DNA from: Candidatus Latescibacterota bacterium
GTDB lineage: Bacteria > Latescibacterota > UBA2968 > GCA-2709665
Assembly (NCBI GenBank): GCA_965219455.1
Contig: OZ244744.1
Coordinates: 1 to 64,000 of the forward strand
Direction of reading: 5' to 3'
DNA: 64,000 nt
Shown here: piece by piece, positions 15,074 through 16,804 of the stretch
Numbering within the stretch: position 1 is the first letter of the stretch
How the letters are laid out: every line of letters starts with the position of its first letter
The notes under the pieces: generated by a model
Databases searched by the model: none
Told to the model about the DNA's origin: nothing
Seen by the model: the letters and a program-made list of their open reading frames with translations, nothing else
Translations under genes and position numbers: made by a program

Positions 15074-15102
15074 TTGACAATTCCCCGTCGGTCATCTATC
15101 TT
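15074..15102 (+). promoter_or_regulatory. Sigma70-like promoter of the metG leader
   Basis: TTGACA(15074)-17 nt-TATCTT(15097). Confidence 0.75.
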
Positions 15103-15129
15103 TACGCCCACACAATTGTGGAGAGTAAA

Positions 15130-15288
15130 ATGAAATCCGTTCAGTTTTCAGTTTGCAGGTCCCGTGTATCCGGGCGATCCTCAGCCATCAAGCATGGCAA
15201 TGCGTCCACTCATGTTGCCCGGTTTTCGATGCGCATGATGTCCTCCTTCTCTATCGGACGTCCCGCGGCGGTACACCCCATGACTTGA
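15130..15288 (+). CDS. Putative Met-rich attenuation leader peptide (52 aa)
   Basis: GGAGAG RBS then MKSVQFSVCRSRVSGRSSAIKHGNASTHVARFSMRMMSSFSIGRPAAVHPMT*; ATG-CGC-ATG-ATG at 15229..15240; below the ORF track size cut-off. Confidence 0.7.
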   Translation: MKSVQFSVCRSRVSGRSSAIKHGNASTHVARFSMRMMSSFSIGRPAAVHPMT

Positions 15289-15316
15289 ACTGAATCACAC
15301 TTGTACCGGAATCGAC

Positions 15317-15351
15317 AAACCCACCGCCGACGGATCGGCGGTGGGTTTTTT
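15317..15351 (+). terminator. Intrinsic terminator (attenuator) between the leader and metG
   Basis: AAACCCACCGCCGA-CGGA-TCGGCGGTGGGTTT, a 14-bp perfect stem ending in T6. Confidence 0.9.
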
Positions 15352-15367
15352 ATGGAAAGGACTTGTC

Positions 15368-16804
15368 ATGAACACCTCCTATGTATCGACCTCCATCCCG
15401 TACGTCAACGCTCGCCCCCACGTGGGCTTTGCGCTGGAACTCGTACAGGCCGACGCGATTGCCCGGTGGCGCCGGCTCCTGGGCGACGACACCTTTTTCC
15501 TGACCGGAACTGACGAGAACGCGTTCAAAAACGTGCAGGCCGCCGCGAGGGAAGGCCTGACTCCCCGCCAGCTCTGCGATCGAAACGCCCCTGTCTTCCT
15601 GAAACTCGTCGAGGCCCTCGACATCTCTACCGACCGCTTCATCCGCTCCTCCTCCGACGCCCACTTTCGCGGAGCCACCAGATTCTGGACGGCCTGCCGG
15701 CAGGAGGATATTTTCCTCAGACAGTACCGCGGTCTGTATTGCTTGGGCTGCGAGGACTTCTATCTGGAAAGGGACCTTGCGGACGGACGGTGCCCTGTAC
15801 ATGGCGTCGAACCCGAGACCGTCGAAGAAACGAACTATTTCTTCCGTCTTTCCGCCTATCAGAAGCCGCTGGAGGCCCTGATCGCGTCCGGAAAGCTCCG
15901 CATTCTTCCGGAAACACGGAGAAACGAGGCGCTGGGATTCATCAGGCAGGGCCTGCAGGATTTCAGCATTTCCCGAAATCGGGATCGTTCGAGGGGCTGG
16001 GGCGTGCCAGTGCCTGGAGATCCCGCGCAGGTCGTGTACGTCTGGTTCGACGCCCTGACCAACTACCTCACCGGCCTGGGCTACGGCTCGAAGGTCGGAA
16101 ATTTCGAGCGGTACTGGCGCAACTGCCCCAACAGGATCCACGTAATCGGCAAAGACATCCTTAAATTCCACGCGGTATACTGGCCCGCCCTGCTGCTCTC
16201 GGCCTGCCTGCCGCTGCCCAGGGCTATCTTCGTCCATGGACACCTGACCGTGGAGGGCCGCAAAATCGGCAAGTCGCTGGACAACGCCGTCGATCCATTC
16301 CCTCTGATCCGGCGATACGGCGCTGACGCCCTTCGGTACTACCTGCTCCGCTCAGTTCGTTCGATAGCGGACGGAGACGTATCCGAAGCCCGCCTCAGGC
16401 AAGTTTATACGACGGATCTGGCGAACGGCCTGGGCAACCTGGTTCGCCGGTTGGAAGCCCTGTGCGAAAGGGCCCGCTACGGTCATGAGGAAACACCCTC
16501 CACGAGGACTTCACCGGAGCTGATGGACGCCCTGGACAGCTTCGACTTCGCCGCGGCCCTCAGGTCCATCTGGCGTCAGATCGCTCAACTGAACCGCGAA
16601 ATCGACTCGGCACGCCCCTGGGAACTTCTGAAACAACAAAAAACCGAAAGGCTTTGGCAACACCTCTCGGTCTGGATCGGGGCTGTCCGCACCATCGCAT
16701 GGTGCCTGAAACCCTTTCTCCCTTGTACAGCCGGTAAAATCGAAATCAGCCTTTCAAGACCTGAGATCCGGAAGAGTCAACCGCTCTTCCCCAGGCTAAC
16801 CTGA
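15368..16804 (+). CDS. metG: Methionine--tRNA ligase, short form (no C-terminal tRNA-binding domain)
   Basis: IPYVNARPHVGF (HIGH-like), TGTDEN, CxxC..CPxH knuckle, SISR, YVWFDAL, IGKDILKFHAVYWPA, KIGKS (KMSKS-like), DALRYYL, LANGLGNL; ATG at 15368 after GGAAAGGA. Confidence 0.95.
   Translation: MNTSYVSTSIPYVNARPHVGFALELVQADAIARWRRLLGDDTFFLTGTDENAFKNVQAAAREGLTPRQLCDRNAPVFLKLVEALDISTDRFIRSSSDAHFRGATRFWTACRQEDIFLRQYRGLYCLGCEDFYLERDLADGRCPVHGVEPETVEETNYFFRLSAYQKPLEALIASGKLRILPETRRNEALGFIRQGLQDFSISRNRDRSRGWGVPVPGDPAQVVYVWFDALTNYLTGLGYGSKVGNFERYWRNCPNRIHVIGKDILKFHAVYWPALLLSACLPLPRAIFVHGHLTVEGRKIGKSLDNAVDPFPLIRRYGADALRYYLLRSVRSIADGDVSEARLRQVYTTDLANGLGNLVRRLEALCERARYGHEETPSTRTSPELMDALDSFDFAAALRSIWRQIAQLNREIDSARPWELLKQQKTERLWQHLSVWIGAVRTIAWCLKPFLPCTAGKIEISLSRPEIRKSQPLFPRLT

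Follow-up and report, generated by a model that had tools for sequence, protein, structure and literature searches.

At pheST of Escherichia coli, an aminoacyl-tRNA synthetase (aaRS) gene stands behind a short open reading frame (ORF) rich in codons of the cognate amino acid, with alternative helices designated 1:2, 2:3 and 3:4 and an intrinsic terminator. The classical his-operon attenuator has the same architecture, with His codons and biosynthesis genes. In Firmicutes, metS and metG are controlled by T-boxes, which bind uncharged tRNA directly and work without translation. The nearest functional analogues of the locus described here are trpS/trpRS1 and leuS of Streptomyces, auxiliary aaRS paralogs with cognate codons in their leaders; the auxiliary trpRS1 of Streptomyces coelicolor is reportedly induced by ribosome-mediated attenuation (attributed to Vecchione & Sello 2010, J Bacteriol 192:3565). 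In the passages of PMC1262725 that deal with such leaders, classical attenuators are predicted before trpS and leuS in Streptomyces, pheST is named as a gamma-proteobacterial example, and no RNA element for methionine genes was found in Actinobacteria. The attenuators that we found in print use Trp, His, Phe, Leu, Thr, Ile/Val or Cys codons, mostly in Proteobacteria and Actinobacteria; full-text literature searches found neither a Met-codon attenuator nor a leader-controlled methionyl-tRNA synthetase (MetRS), and a search for Latescibacteria together with aaRS found nothing. Here we analyse a stretch of 64,000 nucleotides (nt) from a Candidatus Latescibacterota bacterium (contig OZ244744.1, positions 1 to 64,000; hereafter the window), in which a 52-codon leader ORF with clustered Met codons and a terminator precede a MetRS gene, metG2.

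The original prediction, made from the letters of the window, had proposed a methionine-sensing attenuator before metG and had known of no characterised Met-codon precedent. The literature searches agree with it on the second point, and the comparison of orthologous leaders, with no T-box, S-adenosylmethionine (SAM) riboswitch or other Rfam match, supports the first. We favour, at a probability of roughly 0.78, a ribosome-mediated attenuator that would sense charged elongator tRNA-Met and control an auxiliary MetRS paralog. It differs from pheST in having Met in place of Phe codons, a second paralog in place of the housekeeping enzyme and a host among the Latescibacterota, and Rfam reveals no sequence similarity between the two; the Streptomyces leaders use Trp or Leu codons and belong to Actinobacteria. 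With the Firmicutes T-boxes it would share the input (tRNA-Met charging), the output (terminator read-through) and the class of target, but its leader would be translated and has no T-box match. The parts of the locus are as follows.

15074-15079 and 15097-15102, + strand: sigma-70-type promoter, TTGACA, 17-nt spacer, TATCTT
15120-15125, + strand: Shine-Dalgarno (SD) sequence of the leader ORF, GGAGAG, separated from the ATG by AGTA
15130-15288, + strand: leader ORF of 52 codons, MKSVQFSVCRSRVSGRSSAIKHGNASTHVARFSMRMMSSFSIGRPAAVHPMT then stop, with ATG at 15130 and TGA at 15286-15288
15229-15240, + strand: putative regulatory codons ATG-CGC-ATG-ATG, that is Met34, Arg35, Met36 and Met37
15237-15246, + strand: segment 1, the 5' strand of a conserved 1:2 helix predicted by RNAalifold, overlapping the Met36 and Met37 codons
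15265-15277, + strand: segment 2, whose predicted partners are segment 1 or the terminator 5' arm (antiterminator, CGGCGG(T) at 15266-15272)
15317-15351, + strand: intrinsic terminator (segments 3 and 4), with a CGGA loop on a stem of 14 pairs, and a T6 tract
15354-15361, + strand: SD sequence of metG2, GGAAAGGA, beginning 3 nt past the T tract
15368-16804, + strand: metG2, ATG at 15368, encoding the short MetRS paralog MetRS2 of 478 amino acids

The promoter, ribosome-binding site, 52-residue upstream ORF (uORF), Met codons, hairpin, T6 tract and complementarities that had been read from the window were all found in place. The promoter matches the sigma-70 pattern at 10 of 12 positions and is the top such site within 13000-18000, an interval that holds six against 1.6 expected from shuffles. 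The terminator arms, AAACCCACCGCCGA (15317-15330) and TCGGCGGTGGGTTT (15335-15348), enclose the CGGA loop and lead into six T residues at 15346-15351; folding returns the 14-pair stem, and the leader as a whole folds with z = -2.28. A pattern-based terminator scan did not list this hairpin because its stem extends into the T tract; under our own, stricter criteria the whole 5.84-Mb genome has 179 strong terminators, this one among them. Segment 2 is a copy of the terminator 3' arm, and CGGCGGT at 15266-15272 is complementary to ACCGCCG at 15323-15329 in the 5' arm. Five of the 179 genome terminators have 7 nt or more of their 3' arm repeated exactly in the 110 nt upstream, and at least three Met within four residues occur in 20 of the genome's 22,623 small ATG-started ORFs. 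The metG2 SD sequence, GGAAAGGA or near variants of it, is present at most orthologous loci.

Between the T tract and the metG2 ATG lie only 16 nt, which this SD sequence occupies and which cannot accommodate a promoter for metG2 alone. This spacing bears on whether the ORF and terminator might be an independent small-protein or small-RNA gene, metG2 having a promoter of its own. Promoter, ORF and strong terminator do form a complete unit, and contigs from RNA libraries cover the leader (see below). The peptide, though, is weakly constrained, with a ratio of nonsynonymous to synonymous polymorphism (pN/pS) of 0.54-0.66, it has no Pfam match, and the unit always accompanies MetRS2. Together with the missing promoter space, these features make a separate gene an extremely improbable explanation.

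The leader, which we term type A, occurs at all 14 MetRS2 loci of the genus, with TTGACA about 246 nt before the terminator. (Locus L018 of genome G037, where the MetRS2 match begins at residue 36, contains a TGA and has no placed start, is excluded from all counts.) In the alignment of the 14 leaders, TTGACA is invariant and CTAT.TT nearly so, with a variable promoter spacer; the GG core of the SD sequence, the ATG, the three Met codons, GCGGCGG and the terminator are likewise invariant or nearly invariant. Promoter, SD sequence, ATG, CGGCGG segment and terminator keep a fixed spacing in 14 of 14 genomes. The 52-codon frame is open in 13 of the 14, the two alternative frames containing 10 and 46 stops in total, and the position of the stop codon is fixed, mostly as TGA and once as TAA. 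In shuffles that ran one base out of frame, none of 2000 kept all 14 frames open, a figure that ignores relatedness; the window leader alone stayed open in 407 of 2000. At the exception, L011, a 1-nt deletion after the Met codons leads to an overlapping TGA stop 5 nt earlier, and a later 1-nt insertion restores the spacing.

Thirteen of the 14 leaders have M-x-M-M at codons 34-37, x being R, C or Y; L006 has M-Y-M-P. In L002 and L016 the N-terminal 30 residues are unrelated to those of the others, with the length unchanged at 52 codons. The pN/pS is 0.54 over codons 2-33 and 0.66 over codons 34-52, and peptide conservation is highest around and after the Met codons. As judged from these alignments, selection acts on the frame, its length and its Met codons and constrains the peptide only weakly, which argues for the signature of a leader peptide and not of a functional small protein. 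Orthologous leaders had been expected to retain a Met-codon cluster if the proposal was right; they do, and they also keep the frame open, the stop in place, and both the CGGCGG segment and the terminator.

The same alignment allows a switch made of RNA only to be weighed, whether a riboswitch or an RNA that binds tRNA or a protein, such as one for MetRS autoregulation, the ORF being incidental. Such a switch would account for the strong nucleotide conservation that runs from the Met codons to the terminator, for the fold z of the leader, and for third codon positions that are barely more variable than the others (0.77 versus 0.63-0.65 bits). It would not account for a single open frame, an invariant SD sequence and ATG, a fixed stop with one change from TGA to TAA, or a length of 52 codons even where the N-terminal sequence has been replaced. 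A permissive Rfam scan of 14400-15600 found no family, the best matches being unrelated families at E ≥ 0.83 and none lying below 0.8; it gave no T-box covariance-model match, no SAM riboswitch match (SAM-I to SAM-VI and related) and no match to the amino-acid leader families (Trp, His, Leu, Thr, Phe). The runs of cognate codons in two sister leaders of this genome, described below, also stand against an incidental ORF, and we regard an RNA-only switch as very improbable. Neither a T-box nor a SAM riboswitch covers the region, as the original prediction required for its proposal. Of the two usual controls of metG that it named, T-boxes do act on metS and metG in Firmicutes, but SAM riboswitches are not known as a usual control of metG. 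Since no leader family of Rfam matches, the element would work like those families while belonging to no curated one.

Applied to the genus alignment, RNAalifold predicted the terminator and one further helix, in which 15237-15246 (G-AUG-UCC-UCC, holding the Met36 and Met37 codons) pairs with 15267-15277. For the terminator, 13 pairs were counted, with 100% of alignment cells paired (14 of 14 leaders) and one compensatory change from A-U to C-G. For the 1:2 helix there were nine pairs, 93.7% of cells paired and one compensatory pair in two sequences. Controls with slid alignments gave 30-54% paired. A 1:2 helix between the Met-codon stretch and the CGGCGG segment would complete the full 1:2, 2:3 and 3:4 layout. 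The proposed antiterminator, CGGCGGT with ACCGCCG, has its complementarity where it had been placed, and CGGCGG/CCGCCG can form in all 14 leaders, every one of which has the five core pairs and 12 of which have the sixth; the seventh pair, T-A, exists in the window sequence only. Of the covarying pairs that were to be looked for, the terminator and the 1:2 helix hold one compensatory pair each, and the antiterminator holds none within the genus. The competing helix that had also been noted, CGGTACA (15269-15275) with TGTACCG (15302-15308), is present in the window but can form in one of the 14 genus leaders and is not conserved.

Leaders beyond the genus extend this picture. There, MetRS2 proteins show 52-77% identity and their leaders defy alignment with type A. 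A short ORF with a cluster of Met codons nonetheless lies upstream at 22 of 22 usable MetRS2 loci, from 10 genera and four families, and a terminator lies between that ORF and metG2 at 20 of the 22. The clusters at loci outside the genus include the following.

L017: Met cluster MGMPMSMRD
L032: Met cluster MGMSMRD
L031: Met cluster SMGMHTH
L033: Met cluster MAMPRMTS
L034: HMHHHHVM, with a second leader ending MSRMR
L035: MHHHHMM, with a second leader ending ARMR

In all 18 leaders of type A, of a second type (type C) and of L033, the best partner of the terminator 5' arm sits 8-33 nt ahead of the stop, with pairing energies of -9.4 to -18.8 kcal/mol and individual z scores of -1.3 to -4.3 against shuffles. 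Between leader types the antiterminator sequences co-vary, as seen by eye: UGGCAGUGG goes with CCGCUGUCA in L017, and CGGCGGUGG with CCGCUGUCG in L031. Outside the genus, then, the sequence has turned over, yet the Met cluster, the copy of the 3' arm before the stop and the terminator persist, with exceptions given below.

These distant leaders also speak to whether the nascent peptide itself could arrest the ribosome. In that case, a peptide around S-M-C-M-M-S-S-F-S would stall on free Met, SAM or an antibiotic and operate the same antiterminator switch. Peptide conservation does peak at the Met codons and in the residues that follow them, and auxiliary aaRS genes are often tied to natural inhibitors. 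Leaders of other genera and families, however, share the Met codons only, with differing neighbours (MGMPMSMRD, MAMPRMTS, HHHHMM), and the sister attenuators use cognate His and Asn/Asp codons. The conservation of the peptide region would itself be explained by the predicted 1:2 helix, which the same nucleotides would form. Arrest by the peptide is in our view unlikely, with only a small chance of being right.

Two tandem attenuator-like units precede metG2 at L034 and L035, both of family f4, with His and Met codons mixed. CAU is the complement of AUG, and these His and Met leaders may derive from the his leader described next.

The 179 genome terminators were scanned for upstream small ORFs with residue runs, and two further cases were found.

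G000:C1, about 3141885-3142082: his leader, with a promoter, an ORF reading ...AHTAHRHTHH...CSAVD and a terminator; its downstream unit extends to about 3144215
G000:C1, about 4229720-4229960, minus strand: aspartyl-tRNA synthetase (AspRS) leader, with Asn/Asp (and His) runs DVNPDHHNNHHDPIQRRAGP and a terminator

Behind the first lie a gene for a 240-residue SAM-type methyltransferase and then hisI (PF01502) and hisG (PF01634). A His-rich ORF is present at 16 of 20 orthologous his loci in two families, and by sequence the AHTAHRHTHH leader looks like a his-operon attenuator. The gene directly behind the second encodes an archaeal-type nondiscriminating AspRS (NF003483, 2e-144), a patchily distributed enzyme present in 17 of 41 genomes. 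At 11 of the 12 loci examined of 17 returned, from two families, an Asn/Asp-run leader with a terminator is found (NNNDDNNPIRRRAGP, for example), and its Q/R-R-R-A codons (QRRA here) are a copy of the terminator 3' arm. Rfam gave no match on either the his or the AspRS leader.

Codons and genes correspond in each case: the his genes follow His codons, the enzyme that charges tRNA-Asp as well as tRNA-Asn follows Asn/Asp codons, and MetRS2 follows Met codons. That the sister leaders use cognate codons is the strongest argument for the Met codons being the sensor. The his leader is, moreover, a paralogous scaffold to the type C metG2 leaders, alike in segment 2 (CGGCGGTGG) and in the terminator (GCCCGCTGTC...), and in its alignment with the L031 metG2 leader, ATG-GGC-ATG stands opposite CAT-CGC-CAT; the L033 row of this alignment is disregarded. 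This paralogy, with the position of metG2 after hisG in genome G017, suggests that the metG2 leaders derive from the his leader.

We propose that attenuation at metG2 would proceed as follows. Transcription would begin at the promoter at 15074-15102, and a ribosome would translate the 52-codon leader. When Met-tRNA is scarce, the ribosome would stall at Met34, Met36 or Met37 (15229-15240) and cover segment 1 (15237-15246). Segment 2 (15265-15277), thus freed, would pair with the terminator 5' arm through CGGCGG/CCGCCG, the terminator would be blocked, and polymerase would enter metG2. When Met-tRNA is plentiful, the ribosome would reach the stop at 15286-15288 and cover or unwind segment 2; with that segment masked, the terminator at 15317-15351 would form and transcription would end 16 nt before the metG2 start. 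Without translation of the leader, 1:2 and 3:4 would form, and termination would again be expected. Stalling and the structural switch are inferred from the parts, their conservation and the cognate-codon logic of the sister attenuators.

The spacing agrees with the classical model. If the ribosome has the dimensions usually cited, one holding Met37 in its A site reaches, by our calculation, about 15253 and leaves segment 2 free, and one at the stop covers about 15271-15300, short of the terminator. Local folding of the 18 leaders of type A, type C and L033 gave 5-13 nt of the terminator 5' arm sequestered with the ribosome at the Met codons, in all 18, and 0-5 nt with the ribosome at the stop.

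Contigs from RNA libraries of three runs of one study match 15130-15309 without differences: 15138-15309 and 15390-15589 in run X1, 15133-15295 in X2, and 15130-15217 and 15188-15273 in X3. The presence of the leader in these libraries is a weak hint of its expression. In runs X1-X3, the terminator and most of metG2 are without contig cover and no contig bridges the terminator, a pattern that is not readable as attenuation. A fourth run, X4, matched an upstream repeat and a 38-nt piece only.

Several points weigh against the attenuation model. The antiterminator core pairs are invariant and show no covariation across the 14 genus leaders, because they never vary there; support for this helix comes from the more distant leaders. 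At two of these, L034 and L035, His codons accompany Met, and in the four leaders of these two f4 genomes neither duplex search nor local folding found an antiterminator. Segment 1 is ambiguous: RNAalifold places it at the Met36 and Met37 codons, but a duplex search gives other partners in several leaders and often favours a GC-rich stretch 5-18 nt upstream of Met34, or farther. With the stop codon in the A site, the ribosome footprint masks only the 3' part of segment 2. The separation of the two states comes from the local folding model and not from global folding: whole-leader minimum free energy (MFE) structures with 30-nt ribosome masks at the Met codons or the stop gave noisy long-range pairings and left the states unseparated. 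We also raise a theoretical objection of our own, that Met limitation lowers the charging of initiator tRNA and hence translation of the leader, which would favour termination. The RNA contigs could stem from DNA carried over into the libraries, and neither the ends nor the levels of transcripts can be read from contigs. Finally, the organism is uncultured, and the support for attenuation is comparative.

Beyond this locus, a wider proposal seems to us about evenly balanced between right and wrong. The Latescibacterota would possess a modular attenuator scaffold whose codons are exchanged, with His for the his operon, Met for the auxiliary MetRS and Asn/Asp for the auxiliary nondiscriminating AspRS. 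The MetRS2 leader would be the first described stalling-based Met-tRNA attenuator, some relatives would add a translational second tier, and the auxiliary synthetases would act as an inducible reserve when amino acids run short or against natural aaRS inhibitors in a host-associated community. On the favoured reading of the metG2 leader, a textbook control mechanism would extend to methionine and to an uncultured phylum, with classical attenuation in the Latescibacterota for at least three systems and one scaffold reused with different codons. A Met sensor would be of conceptual interest because Met-tRNA also starts the leader peptide, and it would bear on how elongator and initiator pools are distinguished. 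Two auxiliary aaRS paralogs also emerge from the analysis, and the way in which they would be induced suggests backup or resistance enzymes.

The regulated gene itself can be assigned with some detail. MetRS2 matches Pfam PF09334 at 1.2e-91 and, weakly, PF19303, scores 396 bits with TIGR00398, exceeding the family cut-off, and aligns to solved MetRS structures along its full length; on this homology, the product of 15368-16804 is a methionyl-tRNA synthetase. The gene had been called metG, which is right as to the enzyme. It is not the sole metG of the cell but a second, short paralog beside a canonical long MetRS at G000:C1:193881-195275, with which it shares 39% identity. A long canonical MetRS is present in all 41 genomes of the first search. 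Of the phylum's 168 genomes, 23 carry MetRS2; within the genus, it occurs in 13 of the 14 genomes besides this one. Its nearest relatives outside the phylum, among the matches listed, are MetRS proteins of Patescibacteria, Chloroflexota and archaea at about 50% identity. MetRS2 could be a backup under Met limitation or under inhibition of the main MetRS.

Of the signature motifs, MetRS2 has KIGKS/KISKS, and at the HIGH position it carries H-V-G-F in place of the usual MetRS form H-x-G-H; HLGH and KMSKS are found in this genome's canonical paralog. HIGF or HLGF was found in 23 of the 46 homologues in which the pattern located the motif (80 scanned), HxGF being common to many short MetRS genes of Patescibacteria and others. 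MetRS2 is interrupted at three loci: at L016 (G011) it falls into two overlapping pieces, residues 1-137 and 137-478, at L035 (G077) it contains an internal TAA and at L018 (G037) an internal TGA. These copies could be pseudogenes or assembly errors. The gene neighbourhood varies, metG2 lying directly after hisG in G017 (L014) and after a class II aaRS gene (PF00587 and PF03129) in G015 (L015).

At seven loci of relatives, a different uORF, termed type B, lies within 135 nt before metG2. It follows the terminator in L002, L006, L016, L031 and L032 and is the sole leader in L014 and L015. Type B lacks a terminator and, in all seven cases, crosses the metG2 start in another frame; its ATG(C/T)GC...GTCC segment is predicted to pair with the metG2 SD sequence and start at -16 to -29 kcal/mol (z of -2.8 to -6.0, 7 of 7). 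Modelled in this way, type B probably acts by translational attenuation. It resembles ermC-type translational attenuation, in which regulatory codons pair with the SD sequence. It is also like the actinobacterial LEU element, in which, in the part of PMC1262725 that describes it, a run of Leu codons pairs with the leuA SD sequence. Type B is absent from the window's own locus. A comparable role for the window's Met segment, hiding the metG2 SD sequence, is not supported: in the 11 loci that have type A only, pairing energies were -7 to -14 kcal/mol, and the means of shuffled sequences were -8 to -12.

Upstream of the promoter, two tandem copies of a repeat occupy 14740-14860 and 14905-15030 of the window, with cores TTCGCTGCGCTC.GAATGAC and GTCATCC.GAGGAGG. 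Exact-pattern searches of the genome with these cores gave 10 and 20 matches, one of them at 62887-62960 of the window. The repeat at 14740-15030 resembles one that is translated in many spurious ORFs of diverse bacteria. RNA contigs from other organisms also match its first core, with ends that are loose on either side.

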